Positions 5,406-50,386 of a stretch of 51,578 nt of DNA are shown here, piece by piece. The first letter of the stretch is position 1; every line of letters starts with the position of its first letter. Origin of the DNA: Candidatus Micrarchaeota archaeon (GTDB taxonomy: Archaea > Micrarchaeota > Micrarchaeia > Norongarragalinales > Norongarragalinaceae); contig JAZDNL010000080.1 of NCBI GenBank assembly GCA_043799765.1, positions 1 to 51,578 of the forward strand. The letters are read 5' to 3'. The notes under the pieces were generated by a model. It ran no database searches. It saw only the letters and a list, made by a program, of their open reading frames with translations, and had not been told where the DNA came from. Both the position numbers and the translations under genes were made by a program.

Positions 5406-7745
5406 CTATGCGCTGCGTGCTTTCTTCAGCAGCGCTTTCATCTCGGCGCTCGCCACGATGCGCCTCGTGACGTCGATTACGTCGGGGTTCACGGAGATGC
5501 TGTCGATTCCGAACTCGACCAGCGCCTCGGCGAACTCGGGATAAACGGAGGGCGCCTGCCCGCAGATGCCGACGCGCACGCCGTGCTTGTGGCAGCCGTC
5601 TATCACCGCCTTGACGCTCTTCAGCACCGAGGGGTCGCGCTCGTCGAAGTCCTCCGCCACTATAGTGGAATCCCTGTCGACTCCGAGCGTGAGCTGCGTC
5701 AAATCATTGCTCCCTATGCTCATGAAGTCAATTCCGATTTCGCAGAACTCCTCCGCCAGAACCACGGTGGAAGGAACCTCGCACATGATTCCGAACTTGA
5801 AGTCGTAGTTGCGCACCAGCCCCTCTTCCTCCGTTATGCGCTTGCATACCCTGAGCTCGTGCAGCGTGCGCACGAACGGGATCATCAGCCAAAGGTTCTT
5901 CATCCCGAACTCCTCGCGCACCTTCTTGATGGCGTGCAGTTCCATGCGGAACACGTCGGGGTCCTTGACGTATCTGAAGCAGCCGCGGTACCCTATCATC
6001 GGGTTCTCTTCCTGCGGTTCGAACTCCGCGCCGCCTTCGAGGTTTCGGTACTCGTTCGTCTTGAAGTCCGTTGCCCTGTATATTACGGGTCTCGGGTAGA
6101 ACGCCGAGCAAACCGTGCGCAATCCGTTCGCGAGCGCGTCGACGAACTCCTGCTCGCGGTGTTCCGCCACGAGCTTCTTCGGGTGCACGCCAAGCCCCGC
6201 GATCATGAACTCCGCTCTGAGCAGCCCGACGCCGTCGCAGTCCTTTGCGCCGACTTCCTCGGCTTTTTCCGTCTCCGCGATGTTCACGTAAATCTTAGTG
6301 CCTGTTATGACGTGGCTTGGCGCAGCCGCCATTACGACGGTAGCCGCCTGTCCTTCCACATGCGCGGGTTTCGCCGCGCCTTCTATCGACACCTCGCCGT
6401 CGTAGACGATTCCGCGCTTCGCGTCAACCGTGATAACCTGCCCGTCCTTCAGCTTCGCCGTCGCATCCTTGGTGCCGACGATGCACGGCACGCCCAGCTC
6501 GCGCGAAACAATCGCAGCATGGCACGTCATCCCGCCCGCATCCGTGACAATCGCGGCGGCGCGCTTCATGGCGGGAACGTAATCCGGGGAGGTCATCTTG
6601 GCGACCAGGACGTCGCCCTTGAGCACGCGGTCGATTTCGGACGCATCCCTGACTATCTTCACGGGACCCGAGGCTACGCCTGGGGACGAGCCCATCCCGC
6701 GAAGCAGCACGGTTCCGTCCCCCGCGGCAATGGGCGTGGCTGCCTGCACAGCCGCTTCAGCCTTCTTCTTCTTTCCGAGAGTGGTGATCGCGCGCGACTG
6801 CACTATGTAGCGTTTTCCTTTCTCGATGGCCCATTCGATGTCCTGGGGGAAGGCGTAATGCTCGTCGATTCTCCTTCCGAACTCCGCGAGCGCCACGATG
6901 TCGTCGTCCGTGATTTTCTGCGCCTCGCGCATCTCCTCGGGCACGTCGACGGTTTCGTCCCCGCCCTGGGGCGCGCGAATGATCATGATGTCCTGCTTCG
7001 CGATGTTCTTCTCGCGTATGGCGAGCGATTCCCTGTCCACTATGTACCTGTCTGGCGTCACCGTTCCCGAAACAATCGCCTCTCCCAGCCCGAAGCCCGC
7101 CTCGATGACGATGGCGCTCCTGTCCTCGGTCATCGGGTCTGCCGTGAACATTATGCCGCTCTTCTCGCTGTCCACCATCTTCTGCACGATGGCGCACAAA
7201 CCGACGCGCATGTGGTCGAACCCGTTCTCCACGCGGTAATAAATCGCGCGTGCCTCGAAAAGCGAAGCCCAGCAGTCCTTCACCGCCTTCACGACGCCGT
7301 CCGCGCCGGAAACGTTGAGAAAGGTCGCCTGCTGCCCCGCGAACGACGCCTCGGGCAGGTCCTCGGCTGTTGCCGAAGAGCGCACCGCGACCATTATTTC
7401 CTCGTTCATCGAGGGTATCAAATCCGTCCCGCACAGCCTGTTGTAGGCGCGCACGATTTCCGAGCGCGTCTCCTTCGGCATCTGCGACTCGACCATCGCC
7501 TTCTTGATGCGCACGCTCGCCTTCTGGAGCTTCAGCGTGTCCTGCACGTCTATGGACGTTTCGCTTCGGATGAGCGGCTCCAAGCCCGCGGCCTTTATGA
7601 ATTCGAAGTATGCGCCCGAACTGACAACGAACGCAGGCGGCACGGGGAAACCCGCCTTCGCCATCTCGCCGAGGTTCGCGGCCTTTCCGCCCGCAATGGC
7701 GAGGCTGTTCCTGTCTATCTCGTCGAGCCAGTAAACCGCTTTCAT
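5406..7745 (-). CDS. ppsA: Phosphoenolpyruvate synthase (pyruvate, water dikinase)
   Basis: N-terminal ATP-grasp (GGKAANLGEM), swivel His domain (GGMTCHAAIVSRELGVPCIVGT) and a C-terminal PEP/pyruvate TIM barrel (SIGSNDLTQ). Start taken at MKAVYWLDEI (7745), about 33 nt from a TATA. Confidence 0.93.
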   Translation of the reverse strand: MKAVYWLDEIDRNSLAIAGGKAANLGEMAKAGFPVPPAFVVSSGAYFEFIKAAGLEPLIRSETSIDVQDTLKLQKASVRIKKAMVESQMPKETRSEIVRAYNRLCGTDLIPSMNEEIMVAVRSSATAEDLPEASFAGQQATFLNVSGADGVVKAVKDCWASLFEARAIYYRVENGFDHMRVGLCAIVQKMVDSEKSGIMFTADPMTEDRSAIVIEAGFGLGEAIVSGTVTPDRYIVDRESLAIREKNIAKQDIMIIRAPQGGDETVDVPEEMREAQKITDDDIVALAEFGRRIDEHYAFPQDIEWAIEKGKRYIVQSRAITTLGKKKKAEAAVQAATPIAAGDGTVLLRGMGSSPGVASGPVKIVRDASEIDRVLKGDVLVAKMTSPDYVPAMKRAAAIVTDAGGMTCHAAIVSRELGVPCIVGTKDATAKLKDGQVITVDAKRGIVYDGEVSIEGAAKPAHVEGQAATVVMAAAPSHVITGTKIYVNIAETEKAEEVGAKDCDGVGLLRAEFMIAGLGVHPKKLVAEHREQEFVDALANGLRTVCSAFYPRPVIYRATDFKTNEYRNLEGGAEFEPQEENPMIGYRGCFRYVKDPDVFRMELHAIKKVREEFGMKNLWLMIPFVRTLHELRVCKRITEEEGLVRNYDFKFGIMCEVPSTVVLAEEFCEIGIDFMSIGSNDLTQLTLGVDRDSTIVAEDFDERDPSVLKSVKAVIDGCHKHGVRVGICGQAPSVYPEFAEALVEFGIDSISVNPDVIDVTRRIVASAEMKALLKKARSA

Positions 7746-7772
7746 AATCGCACCTGCACCTAGAACCCAACG

Positions 7773-7784
7773 CTTTTTAATAAT
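7773..7784. promoter_or_regulatory. Shared TATA box (CTTTTTAATAAT) between ppsA and the 7804/7848 unit
   Basis: Centre is about 26 nt upstream of ATG 7804 (plus) and about 33 nt upstream of ATG 7745 (minus). Confidence 0.45.
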
Positions 7785-7805
7785 CCTTGCGTGCGCCTTC
7801 TGCAT

Positions 7806-7827
7806 GACGCATTCCGCTGAATGCGTC
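7806..7827 (+). repeat. Hairpin element copy 1 (GACGCATTC-CGCT-GAATGCGTC), preceded by CAT so the unit begins ATGACGCAT
   Basis: 9-bp perfect stem. Related copies are at 12574-12595 and 31757-31777. Confidence 0.7.
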
Positions 7828-7847
7828 GTCCAAGGCGGAGAGGGTGA

Positions 7848-8036
7848 GTGAGTATGGAGTTCAGCAAAACAGCCGTTGTAAGCCTGCTGATAGGAATCGT
7901 CGTCCTGCTCGCGTCGTGGTACGCATGGTTCGCCCAGTTGGACACGTACATGATGATCACCACCGCGCTCGTCGGCGGGGTGCTCTGGTTCGGAATCGCG
8001 CTCGTCGTTCTCGGGCTGCTCATGATTTTCGCGTGA
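7848..8036 (+). CDS. Small two-TM membrane protein (62 aa; GTG 7848 or ATG 7854)
   Basis: Two hydrophobic helices, preceded by GGAGAGGGTGA. A 15-codon upstream ORF (7804-7851) ends across its start. Confidence 0.5.
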   Translation: MSMEFSKTAVVSLLIGIVVLLASWYAWFAQLDTYMMITTALVGGVLWFGIALVVLGLLMIFA

Positions 8037-9961: not shown

Positions 9962-10090
9962 GTGGACGTCTTCGGGATCGCGCTCATTGCGGGAACGATT
10001 TACGCGGCGGCGAAGTACCTTCCTGATTTCTCTTTTGACGAGAGAGTGGCGGGGCTGGCGGTCATAATCGTCTACCTGCTGTCGCTCTGA
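9962..10090 (+). CDS. Candidate 42-aa membrane micro-protein (VDVFGIALIAGTIYAAAKYLPDFSFDERVAGLAVIIVYLLSL)
   Basis: Hand translation with a GTG start about 26 nt downstream of the TATA centre. Two hydrophobic segments. Confidence 0.35.
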   Translation: MDVFGIALIAGTIYAAAKYLPDFSFDERVAGLAVIIVYLLSL

Positions 10091-12460: not shown

Positions 12461-12470
12461 TTTATTAAAA
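12461..12470 (-). promoter_or_regulatory. TATA box (minus-strand TTTTAATAAA) of the pilin-like operon
   Basis: Centre is about 25 nt upstream of ATG 12441. Confidence 0.5.
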
Positions 12471-12484
12471 TACACCGAACCCGC

Positions 12485-12602
12485 AAGGGGGGTTTCACCC
12501 CCCTTTCAGTTCAGCGGTTCTCCTGATTTCCCCCCGTTTTTAGTGCAGGTTTTGCGAACGCCGCGTCTTGCTGGACGCATGCCGCGGCATGCGTCATGTA
12601 AC
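12485..12602 (-). ncRNA. Candidate small transcription unit: TATA, 5' hairpin element, 28-codon ORF (12511-12597, MTHAAACVQQDAAFAKPALKTGGNQENR), G6/C6 hairpin
   Basis: TATA TATTTTAATAAG at 12623-12634, about 30 nt upstream. The G6-UGAAA-C6 hairpin at 12487-12503 follows the stop. No homology evidence. Confidence 0.3.
12574..12595 (-). repeat. Hairpin element copy 2: perfect 22-nt palindrome GACGCATGCCGCGGCATGCGTC followed by ATG (reads ATGACGCAT on the minus strand)
   Basis: Read directly from the sequence. Intergenic. Confidence 0.75.
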
Positions 12603-12626
12603 CGCGACGCGAGCAAAAAGTGCTTA

Positions 12627-13787
12627 TTAAAATACATGGAGGGACGCGCCAAGCGACCAAAGAATCGCGGGCAGAATCAGCGCGCCCATGGAGTAGCTGC
12701 GCCTTGTCCCCGAAAGAATCGGCATCACGCCTATTGCCGCGGCAATCCCGCAGACGAAAAGCCCCGCAGACCCCTCGAAGAGAAAAACCGCCGCGACTAT
12801 GGCGAGAAGAAGCGACGCGTACGCCTTCCTTCCTATCCTTATGCCGACGAACAGCCTATACGCCGCAAGAAGCGCCGCCACTGAAACGCAGAGCGCGAAC
12901 AGTCCCGCAGCAACGAGCATCGCGGTTTGCGTCCAATCGGTCCTGCCAAGAAAATCCTGCACCGCCGCTGCCGCTCCGGAGCGCGCCTTCCCGAGCATCG
13001 AAATTCCCGCGAAATCCGCCACCATCTTCGACGCGGTTACCGACGACGCCAGCACCAGGAACCCCTCGCCGCTCCATTCGCCGATTGCCATGAATGCCGC
13101 AGCACTCAGGAACGCCGGGTTGAGCGCGGGGAGTAATGGCGAGAAAACTCCCGCCACCGCGCCTGCTGCGATTAACGGCACGCCTGCCTTTACTTCCGCG
13201 CAGTCCTTCTGCTTCTTCGGTTCCCCTTCCCCCCGCATCGCGTTTAGCAGGGCGGGGATGCCGAAAAGCCCCGTGAGAAGCGGGAATAGCGGCTCGCGCA
13301 GAAGCGGCGTCGAGAAAACGAGAAAGCCGAACACTCCCGAAAGTGCGAACACAACCGTCCCCTTCCACTCCTTATCCGCCCATAGCGACGCTATGACTAT
13401 TCCCGAAAGCAGCGCCCATGTCAGCGGCTTTACCGCGCTGTAAAGCAGGGGCACGGCGAACCATGCGAACGGGAGCAGTGCAAGCGCCGCGACGATTCCT
13501 CCGAGCAAGCCGTGTAGCATTAATTTCAGCGCCCTTGCCCCCTCGCCCCGCAGTGCGAGCTCCTGCGCCGGAAGCACGGACGCGCTCTGCCCAGCGCTCG
13601 GAAGTGCGAAAAAAACAGCGGGCAGCGTTTCCGAAACCATGTGGCTGAACGCGAGGGCTACGACGAACACGCTTCCTTCGAGGCTGGGCAGCGACGGAAG
13701 GAAGCGTATCAGCAGATTAGTGTGCAAAAACGGAAGCAGTCCCGCCAGAAAGCCGACTACCGTCCCAGCAAGCACCCACGCAATCAT
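12627..13787 (-). CDS. Polytopic membrane protein, DUF112/TctA-like (COG1784-type)
   Basis: About 10 TM segments. GLLPFLHTN and VLPAQELALRGEGARAL resemble the GLiPGlHxN / LPxHxxxxxGxG signatures of the family. Family assignment is from memory only. Confidence 0.55.
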   Translation of the reverse strand: MIAWVLAGTVVGFLAGLLPFLHTNLLIRFLPSLPSLEGSVFVVALAFSHMVSETLPAVFFALPSAGQSASVLPAQELALRGEGARALKLMLHGLLGGIVAALALLPFAWFAVPLLYSAVKPLTWALLSGIVIASLWADKEWKGTVVFALSGVFGFLVFSTPLLREPLFPLLTGLFGIPALLNAMRGEGEPKKQKDCAEVKAGVPLIAAGAVAGVFSPLLPALNPAFLSAAAFMAIGEWSGEGFLVLASSVTASKMVADFAGISMLGKARSGAAAAVQDFLGRTDWTQTAMLVAAGLFALCVSVAALLAAYRLFVGIRIGRKAYASLLLAIVAAVFLFEGSAGLFVCGIAAAIGVMPILSGTRRSYSMGALILPAILWSLGASLHVF

Positions 13788-17152: not shown

Positions 17153-17815
17153 TTAGCGTCTGGCCCGTTTCGTCTTTAGAACTGAAGCAGTGCGCCCCGT
17201 AAGTACGTCAATATAGTCGCCGAGATAGCTTACGAATGGTGCGCACACTGACGTATAGTCGGGCGCAGCAACCGCGGTCGCACGTTTTCCGCCAAATCCA
17301 TCCCACGCGACGTCAATTCTTACCTGCGGCGGACTTCCGCCCTGCTGGTTTCCGTTCTTAATCGGAGGGCAGCCCGCAAGCACCCACGCCGAGGAACTAG
17401 ACGTAAACTGTCCTCCCGTCAGCGTTACCTGCGCCAAGTTATGCCACGAGTAAAGCGGCCCCTGCGGAACAGAATTAGCAGTTCCGCCTTTGGTGGTTCT
17501 GCTTCCCAGCACCTGTACTCCCGAACCACCTTTTATTCCGTTGACGTCCGTGAACTGCTCGTAGCAGGTAAGCGTCGCTGGATACATTCCAGAATACGCG
17601 AACGACGTTAGTTCGACCTTGAACATCCTTCCAGCCGAAGGATGCCCAGTCGGTCCTACCGAATAAATCCAGCCGTGGTTGCTTCCGGAAACGCACAGCC
17701 AGGCCGAATATGTCCAAGAGCCCTGCGGCATGTCATGTTCCGCCCAGCAATCAACTGCGGAAACGAACGGCAGCAACGCCGCAACCAGAATCCCGAAAAC
17801 GATTTTGTTCATCAA
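17153..17815 (-). CDS. Secreted Cys-containing protein, paralog A (220 aa), unknown function
   Basis: Sec-type signal (ALLPFVSAV/DCW). Shares a family with 17822-18340, including a 48-aa identical block. Confidence 0.7.
   Translation of the reverse strand: MMNKIVFGILVAALLPFVSAVDCWAEHDMPQGSWTYSAWLCVSGSNHGWIYSVGPTGHPSAGRMFKVELTSFAYSGMYPATLTCYEQFTDVNGIKGGSGVQVLGSRTTKGGTANSVPQGPLYSWHNLAQVTLTGGQFTSSSSAWVLAGCPPIKNGNQQGGSPPQVRIDVAWDGFGGKRATAVAAPDYTSVCAPFVSYLGDYIDVLTGRTASVLKTKRARR
17298..17425. repeat. 128-bp block identical to 17847-17974
   Basis: Base-by-base comparison. Identity extends to 17289/17838 with 2 mismatches. Confidence 0.9.
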
Positions 17816-17821
17816 AAAACC

Positions 17822-18340
17822 TCAGCGCTTACTCTTACCGCCGAACCCATCCCACGCGACGTCAATTCTTACCTGCGGCGGACTTCCGCCCTGCTGGTTT
17901 CCGTTCTTAATCGGAGGGCAGCCCGCAAGCACCCACGCCGAGGAACTAGACGTAAACTGTCCTCCCGTCAGCGTCACCGTCTGCCCCGTGTACATCCACC
18001 AATAATTCCCAGGAACGCCCATCTGTTTGTAGCACTTCAGCGTCGCCGGATACATGCCCGAATATTGGAATCCCTGCAGATAAACCTTGTACGTCTGCCC
18101 GGCTTCCGGATGTCCGGAAGGCGCAGTCGTGACAATCTGCCCGTGCAGCATCATCGAGAACGGTCCGCTCTGCCCGTATATATTACAGAAATAACCCACG
18201 ACCTGCGTGGAGTTGCACGTCCACGCGGACCACGTCCACAGTCCGTTCTGCATCTGCTGGACATCCCAGCAGCTGGCAGACGCGAAAGTCGCAGCAGCGA
18301 CGAAAACGAGTCCGAAAACGATTGCCTTCCAGTTCGTCAT
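17822..18340 (-). CDS. Secreted Cys-containing protein, paralog B (172 aa), unknown function
   Basis: Sec-type signal (AAATFASA/SCW). Shares SGMYPATL.CY and the identical VTLTGGQFTSSSSAWVLAGCPPIKNGNQQGGSPPQVRIDVAWDGFGGK block with paralog A. Confidence 0.7.
   Translation of the reverse strand: MTNWKAIVFGLVFVAAATFASASCWDVQQMQNGLWTWSAWTCNSTQVVGYFCNIYGQSGPFSMMLHGQIVTTAPSGHPEAGQTYKVYLQGFQYSGMYPATLKCYKQMGVPGNYWWMYTGQTVTLTGGQFTSSSSAWVLAGCPPIKNGNQQGGSPPQVRIDVAWDGFGGKSKR
17847..17974. repeat. 128-bp block identical to 17298-17425
   Basis: Base-by-base comparison, offset 549 nt. Confidence 0.9.
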
Positions 18341-23979: not shown

Positions 23980-24135
23980 TTTCCATCCACCACGCAGAAG
24001 TCCGACCGGAAGGCAGACGGCCGCCGGGCGATTTCGCCTCCGTCGCAGCCGCCGCCTTGGTCAAATTCGTTCAGCGTATTCGGCACTGACGCCGCGCTTT
24101 TAAAGAAAAGCCGACGCGTGGCTGCCAGTGAAAAG

Positions 24136-24208
24136 TGGGGGGACTGAGATTCGAACTCAGGTCGCCAGCTCCCAAAGCTGGCAGGATGCCAGGCTACCCC
24201 ATCCCCCC
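24136..24208 (-). tRNA. tRNA-Pro (anticodon UGG), 73 nt, no intron, CCA not encoded
   Basis: Hand-folded: acceptor GGGGGGA/TCCCCCC, T arm CTGAG-TTCGAAT-CTCAG, anticodon stem CCAGC/GCTGG, loop TTTGGGA. TATA (minus TTTTTATG) lies about 25 nt upstream. Confidence 0.9.
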
Positions 24209-25919: not shown

Positions 25920-26014
25920 CCCGCTGTAGCTCAACCTGGCAGAGCGTCTGACTGTAGTTTGTTGCGCGAAGAGCGGATATCAGAATGTTGCCAGTTCAAA
26001 TCTGGCCGGCGGGA
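25920..26014 (+). tRNA. tRNA-Tyr (anticodon GUA) with a 21-nt intron at the canonical 37/38 position (25958-25978)
   Basis: Hand-folded: C1:G72 acceptor CCCGCTG/CGGCGGG, D arm GCTC/GAGC, anticodon stem TCTGA/TCAGA, loop CTGTAG|intron|A, T arm GCCAG-TTCAAAT-CTGGC. CUGU (loop) can pair with GCGG (intron), leaving 3-nt bulges at both splice sites, consistent with bulge-helix-bulge. Confidence 0.88.
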
Positions 26015-27638
26015 CTTCAAGGACACGGGGCTGGTCGAATTCAATAAACGCTTTCTCATAACCGCGGCGTTGCCTTATGCCAATGGCGAGCTTCATATCG
26101 GGGGACTGCGGAGCACGTACCTTCCCGCGGATGTATTCTCGCGCTACTGCAAGCTCCGCGGCTACGAGACGCTTTTCGTATGCGCGACCGATGAACATGG
26201 CGCGCCAATCGAGATTAATGCCGCCCGGGCAGGGGTTCCGCCGGAAGAGTTCGTCAAACGCTTCCGTCCCAAGCACCGCAAGGACTTCTCCGAAGCCGGC
26301 ATTGTATTCGATTCGTTCCATTACACGCATTCCGCCGAGGACAAGCAGCTTTCCGAAGAATTTTTCGAGGCTCTGAAAGCGGGCGGCCACATCTTCAAGA
26401 AGAAGGTGATGCAGACGTACTGCCCGAAGTGCGCCCGCGTGCTTCCCGACAGGTACGTCAAGGGCGTGTGCCCGAACTGCGGCACCCACGACCAGTACGG
26501 CGATTACTGCGAGAAATGCGGCAAGACGTATACCACCGACGATTTGGTTACCCCCTATTGCGCGCTCTGCAACGGCGTGCCCGAGAAGCAGGAGGTCGAG
26601 CATTTCTTCTTCAAGCTCAGCGCCTTCAAGCCGTTCTTCGAGGAATGGTTCGAAACGAACAAGGATTTGCAGCCGGACGTCGTCAACTACCTGCGCAACT
26701 GGCTGAAGGACTTGCAGGACTGGGATATAACCCGCGACGGGCCTTATTTCGGAATCCCGATTCCCGGCGCGAAGGAGCAGTACTTCTACGTCTGGTTCGA
26801 CGCGCCCATCGGTTATATCGCCTCCGCGAAGGCGTGGTGCGATTCAAACGGTTCGGATCTGAAGACGTGGTGGAGCGAGGACACGGAAATCGTGCACTTC
26901 ATCGGCAAGGACATAGTCTACCACCACTACCTGTTCTGGCCAGCGATGCTGAAGGGCGCGGGATGGGCGCTTCCGCGAAGAATACCCAGCCGCGGCTACC
27001 TAAACGTCGAAGGCGAAAAAATGAGCAAGAGCCGCGGCACGTTCATTCTGCTGTCGGATTTCACGCGGAAGTTCCGGCCGGACTACCTGCGGTATTATCT
27101 AACCGCCGTGACGCCGAACAATTCGAGCGATGGAAACTTTTCCTGGCACGAGTTCGGGCAGCGCGTCAACAACGAGCTCATCGACTCCTACGGGAATCTC
27201 GTGAACCGCGTGCTCACGTTCATTTACAACAAATACGACGCCGTGATACCGATAACGAACGAGTTCACCGAGGAGGACAAGGCGTTCGAGAAGGAGATTT
27301 CCGTCATGCTCGACGAGACGGCGAAGAGCTACGAGGCGGTCGAGCTCAAGACGGCGCTTGAGAAGGCGCTCGCGTTCAGCGGGCGCGCGAACAAATACTT
27401 CAACGACGGCGCGCCGTGGAAGAAGAAGGAGCACGCGCCCACGGTTTTGCTGCTGTCCGCAAGGGCGGTGTACGCGCTTTCAGTCGCATTGCACCCGATC
27501 ATACCGTTCTCGACTCATAAAGTCTTCGAATGCTTCGGTTCCGAACCGAAATGGGGCGGTTCGATTGCCGCGGGCTTGAAGATAAACAAGCCAGAACTGC
27601 TTTTCGCGAAAATAGAGGACGGGCAGCTCAAGCTCTGA
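25959..27638 (+). CDS. metG: Methionyl-tRNA synthetase (no C-terminal dimerisation/Trbp111 domain); start codon unresolved
   Basis: ALPYANGELHIGG (HIGH), zinc knuckles (CPKCARV...CPNCG...CEKCG) and KMSKSRG. The coordinates are the open frame. Its first 56 nt overlap tRNA-Tyr (see findings). Confidence 0.88.
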   Translation: MLREERISECCQFKSGRRDFKDTGLVEFNKRFLITAALPYANGELHIGGLRSTYLPADVFSRYCKLRGYETLFVCATDEHGAPIEINAARAGVPPEEFVKRFRPKHRKDFSEAGIVFDSFHYTHSAEDKQLSEEFFEALKAGGHIFKKKVMQTYCPKCARVLPDRYVKGVCPNCGTHDQYGDYCEKCGKTYTTDDLVTPYCALCNGVPEKQEVEHFFFKLSAFKPFFEEWFETNKDLQPDVVNYLRNWLKDLQDWDITRDGPYFGIPIPGAKEQYFYVWFDAPIGYIASAKAWCDSNGSDLKTWWSEDTEIVHFIGKDIVYHHYLFWPAMLKGAGWALPRRIPSRGYLNVEGEKMSKSRGTFILLSDFTRKFRPDYLRYYLTAVTPNNSSDGNFSWHEFGQRVNNELIDSYGNLVNRVLTFIYNKYDAVIPITNEFTEEDKAFEKEISVMLDETAKSYEAVELKTALEKALAFSGRANKYFNDGAPWKKKEHAPTVLLLSARAVYALSVALHPIIPFSTHKVFECFGSEPKWGGSIAAGLKINKPELLFAKIEDGQLKL

Positions 27639-31633: not shown

Positions 31634-31801
31634 TTATCTGAGGCACGCGGGCGTTTCGTTGCGCCCTTTGTGGAATCTCACGCACTCGCAGCAGATTCCG
31701 TGGCGCTCGCATTCCGTGTGTTTGCACGGGCAGGTTTTCTCGTTTTCCCCTTGTTTGACGCATCCCGCGGATGCGTCATGCAGGGCGCGCCACTCCGTCA
31801 T
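31634..31801 (-). CDS. Small Cys-rich (putative metal-binding) protein, 55 aa
   Basis: CVKQGENEKTCPCKHTECERHGICCECVRFHKGRNETPACL. The ATG overlaps the upstream stop (ATGA at 31798-31801). It resembles the CxC...C.RxG.CCEC..xH...P.C small-protein family as I recall it. Confidence 0.5.
   Translation of the reverse strand: MTEWRALHDASAGCVKQGENEKTCPCKHTECERHGICCECVRFHKGRNETPACLR
31757..31777 (-). repeat. Hairpin element copy 3 (GACGCATCC-CGC-GGATGCGTC, followed by ATG on plus; reads ATGACGCAT on minus), inside the small Cys-rich ORF
   Basis: 9-bp perfect stem with a 3-nt loop. Confidence 0.7.
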
Positions 31802-44410: not shown

Positions 44411-44482
44411 GGCTCTCTCACTTTCTCATCAGCGGCACTTTTTGCTCGGCTTCGCCTCGCAAAACCTGCACTAAAAACGCCT

Positions 44483-48708: not shown

Positions 48709-49112
48709 GATATGATTTCCGCGACGCTCTTTTTAATCAGTTTGGCGCCGAGAGAACGGGCGGCTTTTGCCGCGGCGGCGTCCTCGCACTCGCCCGACCA
48801 AAAAGCCTTCTTTCCGCACCTTATTTTCTCGACGCAGAACGACGCGCTGCCTTTTGAAAAGACGAAACTGCGTTCCTTTTTAACGACGAATGCGGGATGG
48901 TCCGGAATGAATGCCGCGCCTTCCATAAGGACGCGCTTTCCCCTTCCGTCCGAATAAACCAGCTTCGCCTTGGCTCCGCACACCCTCACCCTCAATCGCG
49001 GCGACAAATAATAGTCGGTGAACGTGGTTCCCTTTGATTCGGAAAAACCCGCCTTCTCCGCCTTCCTTCTAAAAGTATCGAAGTCGCGCAGCAGGAAGCG
49101 CAGCTCGTTCAT
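48702..49112 (-). CDS. Hypothetical protein, possibly a degenerate CYTH-like (CyaB/ThTPase) fold
   Basis: The pattern ELRFLL...F.DYYL..RLRVR ... VKKERSFVF ... resembles the CYTH strand order, but the acidic catalytic motifs are not evident. Overlaps both neighbours. Confidence 0.35.
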   Translation of the reverse strand: MNELRFLLRDFDTFRRKAEKAGFSESKGTTFTDYYLSPRLRVRVCGAKAKLVYSDGRGKRVLMEGAAFIPDHPAFVVKKERSFVFSKGSASFCVEKIRCGKKAFWSGECEDAAAAKAARSLGAKLIKKSVAEIISC

Positions 49113-50386
49113 TCTTCCTTTAGCTCGCGTATCTGCGCCAGCCTGCCCTCGAGGTCCTCCTTCAGCTTGGGCGCGATGAAGTTCTTCGTGTAGAAGTCAG
49201 CCTTCGCGGCTATTGAAAGCGCTCCCGCAAGGGCGCGGGCGATTTTGCCGCGCTTCCCAAGGGGCGCCGTGTTTATCATCGGGTCCTGGAAAATGATTCC
49301 GTGCTTCGGCGTGGAAATGCGCTTGTTCTTCAGGTGCTTGAACAGCGCCTTCTCAGCGCCCATCACCTGCACAGTTGACGACGGAAGCCGCGCAAGCCTT
49401 TCCAGGCTGCCTGCAAGCGAAAGCAACCGCGAAGCGAGCATGGGCTCGATCAGGTAGCAAAGGTTCGGCATCTCCTTCAGCGCCTTTTCCTTCGCGTATT
49501 CCTCGAGAAGCGCGCGCGTTTCCGCAAGCGCGGCTATCTCGGACGCCAGCCTCCTTATCGCCGCGCGGTCCTTCTCGTCGAACGGCGCGCCGAAGCTCTT
49601 CGAGAGCAATGCCTTCGCCTTCTCCGCGCCGACGTACTTCGCCAGCTCCTCCTCGGGCATCTGGCGCCTGTCGCCGTATTTGGAATACAATTCGCAGACG
49701 GTTTCCTCGTTCTTCAGGTCGAGTTCGGGGAAATTCAGCTGCGCCCACTCGCTCAGGCGCTGGTACATCAGGCTCTTCACATTGTCCAAGTCGTCGATTG
49801 CGCGAACCGCCTGTATAAGCGACGACTCCGGACGCTTGTAAGCATCCTGCACGCCTTCCTTCGCGCGTTCGAGGAAAGAGCTCCTGCGTTCGGCGAATCC
49901 TCCTTCGCGCCTTTCGCCGCGGAACCCTCCTTCTCTCCTGTCCCCGCCGCGATATTCCTCGCGTCTGAAACCGCCCTCCCTGCGCGGTCCCCTGAAGCCG
50001 CCCTCTCTCGGCGGACCTCTGAATCCGCTACCCTCGCGCCTTTGGAATCCGCCCTCCCTGGCCGGGCCGCGGTCGAACCCGCCTTCCCTAGGCGGACTGC
50101 GAGTGAACCCGCCCTCTCTAGGTGGGCCTCTGAAACTTCCCTCGCGCCTTTCACCGGAACCGCCGCTCGGCCTGCTTCCGCCGTAGCTTCCAGTTTCGCG
50201 CCTTTCTCCGCCGCCTTGGTATCCTTCGCGCTTGAAGCCGCCCTCGCGCCTTTCACCAGAACCGCCGCTCGGCCTGTAGCTTCCGCCTTCGCGTCTCTCG
50301 CCTGAGCCTCCGCTTCTATGCGGCGCGCTTCCGCTCGGCTTTCCACCGCTATAACGGTTGCTCTTGAAGCTGCGTTTCTTAAACAT
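49109..50386 (-). CDS. nop5: Nop5 (Nop56/58) homolog: NOSIC plus Nop domains preceded by an about 175-aa Arg/Gly/Glu repeat region
   Basis: RLSEWAQLNFPEL (NOSIC) and LARLPSSTVQVMGAEKALFKHL...TPKHGIIFQ...KRGKIARALAGALSIAAKADFY (Nop). GGGGAG lies 8 nt upstream of ATG 50386. Confidence 0.85.
   Translation of the reverse strand: MFKKRSFKSNRYSGGKPSGSAPHRSGGSGERREGGSYRPSGGSGERREGGFKREGYQGGGERRETGSYGGSRPSGGSGERREGSFRGPPREGGFTRSPPREGGFDRGPAREGGFQRREGSGFRGPPREGGFRGPRREGGFRREEYRGGDRREGGFRGERREGGFAERRSSFLERAKEGVQDAYKRPESSLIQAVRAIDDLDNVKSLMYQRLSEWAQLNFPELDLKNEETVCELYSKYGDRRQMPEEELAKYVGAEKAKALLSKSFGAPFDEKDRAAIRRLASEIAALAETRALLEEYAKEKALKEMPNLCYLIEPMLASRLLSLAGSLERLARLPSSTVQVMGAEKALFKHLKNKRISTPKHGIIFQDPMINTAPLGKRGKIARALAGALSIAAKADFYTKNFIAPKLKEDLEGRLAQIRELKEE

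Follow-up and report, generated by a model that had tools for sequence, protein, structure and literature searches.

Three copies of a hairpin element in the window

The stretch of DNA analysed here, 51,578 nt of contig JAZDNL010000080.1 from a Candidatus Micrarchaeota archaeon (hereafter the window), carries three copies of a short hairpin element, which is named H in this report. The copies lie among archaeal housekeeping genes (eRF1, a P-type ATPase, phosphoenolpyruvate (PEP) synthase, ABCE1, AspRS, CTP synthase and a thermosome subunit), and a TctA-like permease and type-IV-pilin-like genes also occur there. Contigs of Ca. Norongarragalina meridionalis LFW-144_1 (Micrarchaeia), of other Micrarchaeota metagenome-assembled genomes (MAGs) and of metagenomes match parts of the window at 78-92% identity. 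Promoters in the window display TTTTAATAA boxes about 21 nt before the start codons, a spacing which suggests that the mRNAs of the window are largely leaderless. Related loci and contigs outside the window are designated by L-numbers (for example L005). The three copies are as follows:

7794..7837 (+), H copy 1: a 44-nt unit, CGCCTTCTGC ATGACGCATTCCGCTGAATGCGTC GTCCAAGGCG, with the core palindrome at 7806-7827
12559..12610 (-), H copy 2: core palindrome at 12574-12595 and an 'ATG' at 12597; nested in the apex of another repeat, element A (see below)
31747..31791 (-), H copy 3: core palindrome at 31757-31777; located in the 5' end of a DUF6485-like gene (31634-31801), where it encodes ..ALHDASAGCVKQG..

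A previous reading of the letters alone (the sequence-only reading) had proposed that a hairpin motif occurs here three times with a compensatory change in its stem, and both statements hold. The motif ATGACGCAT-N-C..G-N'-ATGCGTC has three exact copies in the window, in which ATGACGCAT itself is found three times (7804+, 12597-, 31779-) against 0.29 expected. The pattern GACGCATNC-N2-6-GNATGCGTC likewise gives three matches (7806-7827, 12574-12595 and 31757-31777), and not one match to this palindrome was obtained in 100 dinucleotide-preserving shuffles. Neither a scan with a covariance model, which detected no fourth copy in the window, nor mismatch searches (up to 3 mismatches), whose matches were not above chance, enlarged this number. 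The variable stem pair reads T:A, G:C and C:G in the three copies. Copy 2 is indeed the perfect 22-nt palindrome that had been noticed, and copy 3 is 21 nt long with a loop of 3 nt. Alignment of the window copies gives a common core of about 40 nt, (C)TGCATGACGCAT-N-CCGC-N-G-N'-ATGCGTC-NNN-CAAG, which includes the downstream CAAG also seen in the sequence-only reading; beyond this core the likeness ends. A small membrane-protein gene, followed by the ABCE1 gene, has its TATA box at 7775-7783 and its ATG at 7854; copy 1 is situated between these two and has a predicted folding energy of -24.9 kcal/mol. Window copies 1 and 2 begin about 21-27 nt after a TATA box.

A hairpin family in DPANN archaea

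The extent of the family became apparent in a scan of 596 Gb, comprising one genome per species for 185,579 species, with the pattern ATGACGCATNC-N2-6-GNATGCGTC. The scan returned 113 loci, 34 of them from DPANN archaea in about 11 assemblies: the Micrarchaeota MAG PEXZ01 (10 contigs), LFW-144_1 (5 contigs), four Aenigmatarchaeota MAGs, several unclassified "uncultured archaeon" MAGs and one Nanohalobium MAG. The positions N and N' are Watson-Crick complementary in all 39 archaeal matches (A-T in 18, G-C in 10, C-G in 7 and T-A in 4), whereas in the bacterial matches to the identical pattern, which served as an internal control, they are complementary in only 40 of 90. The compensatory change first seen in the window thus extends to the whole archaeal set. 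Divergent copies that are invisible to the exact pattern were recovered with a covariance model, R1. They include double compensatory changes, from G-C to A-U at stem position 4 (L046:2770-2820), from U-A to C-G at position 7 (L003:2815, L049:6913, L102:2124 and L025:5024), from U-A to G-C at the same position (L101:460) and from C-G to U-A at position 9 (L031:3144). In PEXZ01, sampled contigs of a genome of about 1 Mb contain at least 10 strict and at least 5 divergent copies.

When 46 archaeal copies are aligned, pairing is complete in the 9-bp helix (413 of 413 stem cells), two-sided changes occur at 4 of the 9 positions, and the N/N' position displays all four pair types. The structure of this alignment outscores all column shuffles and all slid registers. 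A metagenome scan in which the flanks were left unspecified revealed that these are asymmetric, the full motif being 5'-CYTG / N-A-Y / stem-loop-stem / C-A-G / CARG-3'. H therefore consists of a core of 21-24 nt within a full unit of about 36-45 nt. The stem of 9-10 bp is almost invariant (GACGCAU-N-C / G-N'-AUGCGUC) and is closed by a loop of 3-4 nt; below it lies a 3x3 internal loop, in which 5' N-A-Y faces 3' C-A-G or similar, and then a short outer helix with Y-R covariation. This helix reads CYUG/CARG in Micrarchaeia, and in Aenigmatarchaeota-type genomes it is CG/CG. Copies in the latter have the architecture CG / UAU / stem / UAU / CG(AAA), and the outer pair also differs by group (U-A in Micrarchaeia, C-G in Aenigmatarchaeota-type genomes).

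According to these findings, H is a genuine hairpin family with multiple copies and preserved base pairing. The complete pairing, the two-sided changes and the conservation of the flanks indicate that the hairpin is selected as a structure, with the stem base and flanks selected as sequence. The hairpin family envisaged from three copies is thereby borne out: the wider genome search and the covariance model yielded further copies, and the covariation persists in the larger set. A search of Rfam 15 over the interval and the related loci matched no family other than tRNA, rRNA and RNase P, and the best match over the finding itself was sraA, with 18 bits against a cut-off of 56 bits. An origin from viruses or plasmids was considered and discarded, since a scan of viral contigs gave two matches whose context looked bacterial and which appear coincidental.

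A bacterial hairpin family with the same stem, GACGCATCC-N5-6-GGATGCGTC, was also encountered, in Acidobacteria/Terriglobia MAGs (L023, L036, L050, L061, L068, L086, L094 and L112) and in Allosphingosinicella (L088). Directly before it lies a palindrome resembling the CGTC type of repetitive extragenic palindromic (REP) sequences (GATCCCTCGC..GCTCGGGAT|GACG). This family hints at a link of H to bacterial CGTC REPs, or else at convergence.

Presence and absence at orthologous sites

All three window copies are missing at the orthologous positions of the nearest relatives found (80-92% DNA identity). At copy 1, the promoter of Ca. Norongarragalina meridionalis (L005) aligns base by base with that of the window up to ...TTTTTAATAATCCTTGCGTG and resumes before the ATG, and the ~34-44 nt that carry the hairpin are lacking. 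At the site of copy 2, L005 has a single TATA box and about 20 nt where the window has an insertion of 149 nt (12475-12623). Copy 3 has no counterpart in L117 and L118, which are about 82% and 81% identical in DNA to the window across the region (the mean column identity of the three-way alignment is 86%), nor in L125 (87-92% identity). The starts of the gene in these three relatives read ATG GCC AGG AAG AAA TGC CCG.. or MTECKRKENEK.., and 10 of 10 DUF6485-like homologues have the short N-terminus M.RK.CPNK.ENEK.CPC without the copy-3 segment. In the window the original start codon and four codons have been replaced, the open reading frame (ORF) starts with an ATG that overlaps the stop of the upstream gene, and the TGC of the 3' arm of copy 3 aligns with the conserved first cysteine of the DUF6485-like protein.

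The reverse situation also occurs. In L005, an 88-nt unit made of element A and H (A+H) is placed between the equivalents of window positions 10086 and 10098 and flanked by an 11-nt direct repeat, and L125 has an A+H unit between the positions corresponding to 32340 and 32346; the window has nothing inserted at either site. The target already bore a resemblance to part of the element in two cases (TGCGTG beside copy 1 and ATGC..AACAGG at copy 3), and because of this resemblance an insertion guided by microhomology, or template switching, may be entertained as a speculative route.

Two side observations concern these loci. The PEP synthase (PpsA) ORF of the window, 5406-7805 (-), 799 aa, takes its start ATG from the reverse complement of a CAT in copy 1; the true start is likely to be MKAVYWLDE near 7745, copy 1 giving gene callers a false N-terminal extension of 20 aa. 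Near the site of copy 3, L125 has an insert of about 740 nt (5934-6676) between the MJ0538-like and DUF6485-like genes that is lacking in the window, with two small overlapping ORFs of 106 and 121 aa and the appearance of a toxin-antitoxin-type cassette.

Copy 2 lies in a mosaic insertion

The 149-nt insertion that contains copy 2 is a mosaic of two other repeat families, with H inside one of them. The features concerned are the following:

12624..12636 (-): upstream copy of the 13-nt direct repeat TGTATTTTAATAA, the 'TATA box' of the sequence-only reading
12536..12623 (-): element A with H in its apical loop, a ~44-nt palindromic repeat (GCACTTTTTGCTC..TCGCAAAACCTGCACTAAAAAC) expanded to 88 nt
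12475..12535 (-): unit B, a third repeat family of ~61 nt, which holds the G6-UGAAA-C6 hairpin (12487-12503)
12462..12474 (-): downstream copy of TGTATTTTAATAA, the TATA box of the pilin operon
12511..12597 (-): 28-codon ORF, MTHAAACVQQDAAFAKPALKTGGNQENR followed by a stop, a by-product of the hairpin ATG
44435..44478 (+): solo element A, without H, an inverted pair

Element A together with H folds at -41 kcal/mol (z = -4.2). Elsewhere, element A without H is found twice in L102 (2239-2287 and 2352-2395) and once in L003 (2695-2741), and the A+H composite is present in L005, L030, L104, L125, L154 and L160. Because element A also occurs alone at 44435-44478, A and H are separable modules. Homologues of unit B were identified in L049 (1190-1275, bare and beside a tRNA), L034 (5160-5275) and L038 (6575-6700). 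Unit B is bare in the window and in L049, whereas its loop holds H in L034 and L038, in opposite orientations. Opposite orientations within one loop are hard to account for by an RNA domain evolving in place and are expected from independent insertions.

Some further properties of these repeats were recorded. Element A is intergenic, with T-runs on both strands, and may be a bidirectional terminator; L102 contains a 300-nt mosaic of H, A and A. Unit B ends in a G-rich/C-rich hairpin and then UUGCGGGUUCG, which resembles a remnant of a tRNA T-arm, and it lies directly 3' of a tRNA in L049 and L038; the copy in the window has no tRNA near it and is an orphan.

The sequence-only reading had interpreted this interval as a self-contained transcription unit, that is, an unannotated small RNA of about 115 nt or a 28-aa micro-protein gene; such a gene would have its own TATA box and a terminator hairpin. 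The order of the parts is what such a gene would require, with TTTTAATAA (12624-12632, minus strand) 27 nt before an ATG, then the 28-codon ORF and then the G6/C6 hairpin, and each of the three is where it had been described. Their origins tell a different story. The 13-mer TGTATTTTAATAA has exactly two copies in the window against 0.01 expected, which together bracket the A+H+B insertion, and the TATA box assigned to the putative gene is therefore a duplicate of the pilin TATA box. The whole segment is absent in L005. The hairpin and the supposed terminator come from separate repeat families that are found independently elsewhere, the latter being part of unit B. In L005, L030 and L104 the ORF is conserved neither in frame nor in length: paralogous copies encode MTHAAACVQQDAARKTCTKNCEPA, ..DAASQNLR and ..VLRSQNLH, each before a stop, and the ORFs opened by the hairpin ATG have only the hairpin-encoded MTH.A.CV.Q in common before frame and length diverge (15 to 67 aa). 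This ATG belongs to the conserved 5' flank and accompanies the hairpin everywhere, including in a tRNA intron and, in antisense, in aminoacyl-tRNA synthetase genes. Both versions, the micro-protein and the conserved small RNA with its own promoter, were rejected on these grounds, and we regard a gene of this kind as very improbable. The TATA box 27 nt upstream could possibly give rise to a short transcript in this strain, which would be an accident of the insertion rather than a conserved gene.

Flanking direct repeats accompany composite insertions in the window (13 nt) and in L005 (11 nt); none is present at L104.

Copies inside protein-coding genes

H also resides within protein-coding genes. 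In MAG PEXZ01 it is found in the genes of CysRS (L073) and HisRS (L025), and in LFW-144_1 a variant of H lies in that of GatE (L049), in each case with Pfam domains on both sides in one frame. The CysRS case is a clean insertion of 12 aa, RPAGRIPRDASY, corresponding to 36 nt (GTAT + the 22-nt palindrome + CAGCAGGACG, on the opposite strand), into the linker between the catalytic and DALR domains. It is absent in five orthologues, three of them 84-86% identical (including a Ca. Norongarragalina protein) and two 58-62% identical. The reading frame of HisRS contains the near-identical PAGRIPQDASYK and that of GatE another copy, the comparison with orthologues being confined to CysRS. The stretch PAGRIPRDASYK lies within the H-encoded peptides predicted for both CysRS and HisRS. 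Counting copy 3 in the DUF6485-like gene, the palindrome is thus in frame in unrelated protein genes (CysRS, HisRS, GatE and DUF6485-like), as in the Rickettsia palindromic elements (RPEs) discussed below, and its orientation relative to the host genes is mixed.

These locations bear on another explanation, namely that the palindrome, overlapping transcription start sites, serves as an operator in double-stranded DNA for a dimeric transcription factor. A perfect inverted repeat with conserved half-sites (ATGCGTC) has the form of such a site, and copies 1 and 2 lie just downstream of TATA boxes. An operator would hardly be placed in coding regions, tRNA introns and rRNA spacers, however, and the inner stem positions covary, with all 413 cells paired, instead of being conserved or free. 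Since the site is also absent from the orthologous promoter in L005, an operator seems extremely improbable.

Mobile element or functional RNA

Taken together, H occupies 5' untranslated regions (UTRs), tRNA leaders and introns, rRNA spacers, the apical loops of other palindromic repeats and housekeeping genes. Its turnover between relatives at orthologous sites, its nesting in hairpin loops and its in-frame genic copies are best taken as showing that H moves. The three hairpins of the window are probably copies of a short, non-autonomous mobile DNA element, a REP/RPE-like palindrome, and a probability of roughly 0.65 is given to this explanation.

Several findings weigh against it. No clear or consistent target-site duplication was detected for H alone, and the flanking direct repeats vary in length (11 and 13 nt) and belong to the composite units. 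The direction of the indel for copies 1 and 2 is read from one comparator genome. No transposase or integrase is evident among the housekeeping genes of the window, and a tblastn search of about 320 kb for TnpA (IS200/IS605) and RAYT enzymes, a weak test, gave no hit below E = 1. The stem base is constant across Micrarchaeia, Aenigmatarchaeota-type MAGs and a Nanohalobium MAG, and of 24 Aenigmatarchaeota-type copies at least 11 lie, in sense orientation, in tRNA or rRNA genes or no more than 120 nt from them, a pattern which would also fit a host RNA function. Locus-specific outer helices are barely above chimeric controls (ddG -16.4 against -15.3 kcal/mol); long helices of this type, not clearly stronger than the controls, were dropped as a general rule.

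The association with stable RNA genes underlies the principal alternative, in which the role of H lies primarily at the RNA level, the hairpin being a signal for binding or cleavage by an RNA-processing or stability factor conserved in DPANN archaea. According to this explanation H would mark the discarded parts of precursors (tRNA 5' leaders, introns and rRNA spacers) and some mRNA 5' ends, and its spread would be secondary. Aenigmatarchaeota-type copies are indeed placed 12-57 nt upstream of tRNAs in L042, L066, L024 and L004, one lies inside a tRNA intron (L004), and others are in an rRNA spacer and near a 5S rRNA gene. The constancy of the stem sequence and the 3x3 internal loop across phyla, the G-U pairs in the outer helix and the start of window copies 1 and 2 at a short distance from a TATA box point in the same direction. 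Because a perfect palindromic stem yields the same RNA stem from both orientations, orientation does not decide the matter, and the stem symmetry itself would suit an RNA signal. On the other hand, close relatives manage without the copies of the window and those in genes, copies run in frame and antisense inside CysRS, HisRS and GatE, one host hairpin accepts H in both orientations, and Rfam offers no match. We therefore consider a primary RNA function unlikely. The clustering near tRNA and rRNA genes could reflect a target preference, a tolerance (the insert being discarded during RNA processing) or a real processing or stability signal.

Other readings of the RNA were set aside. An archaeal bulge-helix-bulge intron has, at the boundaries of the element that is cut out of the RNA, two 3-nt bulges on opposite strands with a 4-bp helix between them; the predicted folds of H show a symmetric 3x3 internal loop under a 9-bp helix, and the genic copies keep the frame, so H does not appear to be an intron of this type. 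Readings of the flanks as a K-turn, a box C/D or an H/ACA RNA were dropped because inspection revealed neither tandem G.A pairs nor a box C or D, and ACA was not consistent.

Observations on the stable RNA loci themselves are as follows. In an unclassified archaeal MAG (assembly CBEVTC01; L046 1-5017, minus strand), the 16S-tRNA-23S spacer contains three sense copies of H, with orthologues in L033, and a further weak copy lies upstream of 16S; the hairpins of this assembly are of the Aenigmatarchaeota type. In L031 (2912-3170), H is found about 120 nt downstream of the 5S rRNA gene. In L055, L080, L109/L113 and L110, tRNA-like halves (acceptor and D-arm, or T-arm) appear by eye to be split by long H-containing inserts; these interrupted tRNAs are missed by both ARAGORN and the Rfam tRNA model and may represent split tRNA genes or genes with several introns. 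L109 7192-7536 (-) matches the archaeal RNase P RNA with 53 bits against a gathering score of 84 bits (E = 4.5e-12), which suggests an RNase P RNA that is divergent or reduced in that DPANN lineage.

If H is a mobile element, propagation would begin with the folded hairpin, in single-stranded DNA or RNA, being recognised by a trans-acting enzyme. This enzyme would read the stem base GACGCA/UGCGUC together with the internal loop or flanks and then mobilise H, most likely acting on single-stranded DNA by analogy with the RAYT and IS200/IS605 enzymes that act on REP hairpins. Recognition of a folded hairpin by its stem base and flanks would explain why perfect pairing is kept while the inner pairs and the loop vary. 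In the window, copy 1 would have added a stable hairpin to the mRNA of the small membrane-protein gene and ABCE1, at its 5' end or close to it (the transcript start being deduced from the TATA spacing), copy 2 would have arrived within the mosaic insertion that duplicated the pilin TATA box, and copy 3 would have rewritten the start and N-terminus of a small Cys-rich protein, whose conserved first cysteine the hairpin TGC now appears to supply. A more far-reaching and rather doubtful idea is that H is the recognition hairpin of an undescribed system common to several DPANN lineages, either a structure-specific single-strand transposition or 'hairpin-homing' machinery without a RAYT-like enzyme, or an RNA-processing or quality-control factor for which the hairpin would label the leaders, introns and spacers of tRNA and rRNA precursors. 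If the RNA-processing version were true, the genic and intergenic copies of Micrarchaeia would represent spill-over from that system.

Other features of the window

The window has a G+C content of 60%, with a lone low-G+C stretch (51.5%) at 16-18 kb. This stretch contains a 144-nt direct repeat (17286-17429 and 17835-17978) of 97% identity, 549 nt apart, in ORFs without a Pfam match. Within the ORF 49109-50386 (-), the region 49895-50303 holds several families of imperfect direct repeats of 24-44 nt, which suggests a repetitive protein segment. The tRNA-Tyr(GTA) gene at 25920-26015 (+), with an intron of 21 nt, and the nearby tRNA-Pro(TGG) gene at 24135-24208 (-) are both without H; near the corresponding position the relative L107 has an additional tRNA-like sequence with an adjoining hairpin. 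Looking up two proteins of the window by their exact sequence returned no match.

Comparison with known repeats

Targeted searches of the literature on hairpin, MITE (miniature inverted-repeat transposable element) or REP elements in DPANN archaea or Micrarchaeota found no description of H, and repeats, hairpins and transposases go unmentioned in two genome papers, on Ca. Norongarragalina and Micrarchaeota. The closest bacterial parallel is the CGTC-tagged REP super-family, with stems of 8-9 bp and loops of 4-5 nt, members inside larger palindromes and some genic copies that are read through (Di Nocera et al. 2013, PMC3733652). By definition the palindrome of a REP has, on one side, a conserved terminal tetranucleotide, GTAG or CGTC, that is unpaired (PMC3733652). 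No dedicated transposase was identified for CGTC REPs, and the survey covered eight bacterial phyla only (PMC3733652). REPs and H are alike in being short palindromes of similar stem and loop size with many copies, inside larger palindromes and genes; REPs number tens to hundreds per genome, and H 3 in the 51.6 kb window, at least 15 in the sampled PEXZ01 contigs and 46 in the alignment. H also has CGTC/GACG beside A-T, as ATGACG / CGTCAT. In contrast to the unpaired terminal tag of REPs, the CGTC of H is paired with GACG at the stem base in 46 of 46 copies, and H lacks both the GTAG tag and the CCA tail. REPs are mostly head-to-head dimers, whereas micrarchaeial H copies are singletons, L004 and L046 carrying two or three in direct orientation. 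Finally, CGTC REPs are bacterial, and H is found in DPANN archaea with a stem common across phyla.

The in-frame genic behaviour is known from RPEs, which have been reviewed (PMC10969869), and from intragenic REPs (PMC3733652). H is like RPEs in being palindromic and in inserting in frame into unrelated genes; it is three to four times smaller (36-45 nt, ~12 aa), has no sequence similarity to them and resides in an archaeal host. According to what Ogata et al. reportedly described in 2000, RPEs are palindromic selfish repeats of a reduced genome, about 100-150 bp long, which lie in frame in unrelated essential genes, encode 30-50 aa tolerated as an extra surface peptide and also occur in non-coding RNA genes. 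Archaeal MITEs, which like H are non-autonomous, multi-copy and palindromic and display insertion polymorphism, form another point of comparison, and the A+H composites flanked by short direct repeats resemble them. A MITE is defined by terminal inverted repeats, a target-site duplication of fixed length and descent from an autonomous insertion sequence (IS). H differs in being far smaller and in showing no terminal inverted repeats traceable to an IS and no consistent target-site duplication; no parent IS was found for it. MITEs are listed for Sulfolobus, Halobacterium and Haloquadratum (PMC10969869). With regard to tRNA introns, H lies in that of L004 and, by eye, those of L109 and L031, and in this it recalls the mobile tRNA introns of Thermoproteales. 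The latter, described by Fujishima et al. in 2010, are said to place related sequence at different positions and in different genes. Unlike them, H is not confined to introns, it has a 3x3 internal loop, and its genic copies are predicted to be read through. By analogy, H would be REP- or RPE-like in its behaviour and a member of no defined family; what sets it apart from the defined REPs is the pairing of its CGTC, the lack of a CCA tail and of a dimeric arrangement, and its archaeal host.

Short REP/RPE-like palindromes have been catalogued almost only in bacteria, and H appears as a well-defined and compact family of the ultra-small DPANN archaea. The element remodels both promoters and 5' UTRs, duplicates a TATA box, rewrites a protein N-terminus and is predicted to add 12 residues to a tRNA synthetase (CysRS). 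It also affects annotation through false starts and ORFs, such as the 20-aa PpsA extension and the 28-codon ORF, and its motif, ready for use as a covariance model, can serve to mask or annotate DPANN genomes. These observations are of moderate to high interest to research on mobile elements and archaeal genomes; as a regulatory discovery in the window they are of less interest. In conclusion, a stem kept across phyla, a tight association with tRNA and rRNA genes seen in some lineages and the absence of any known transposase make H a tractable case for studying both movement and co-option by the host.

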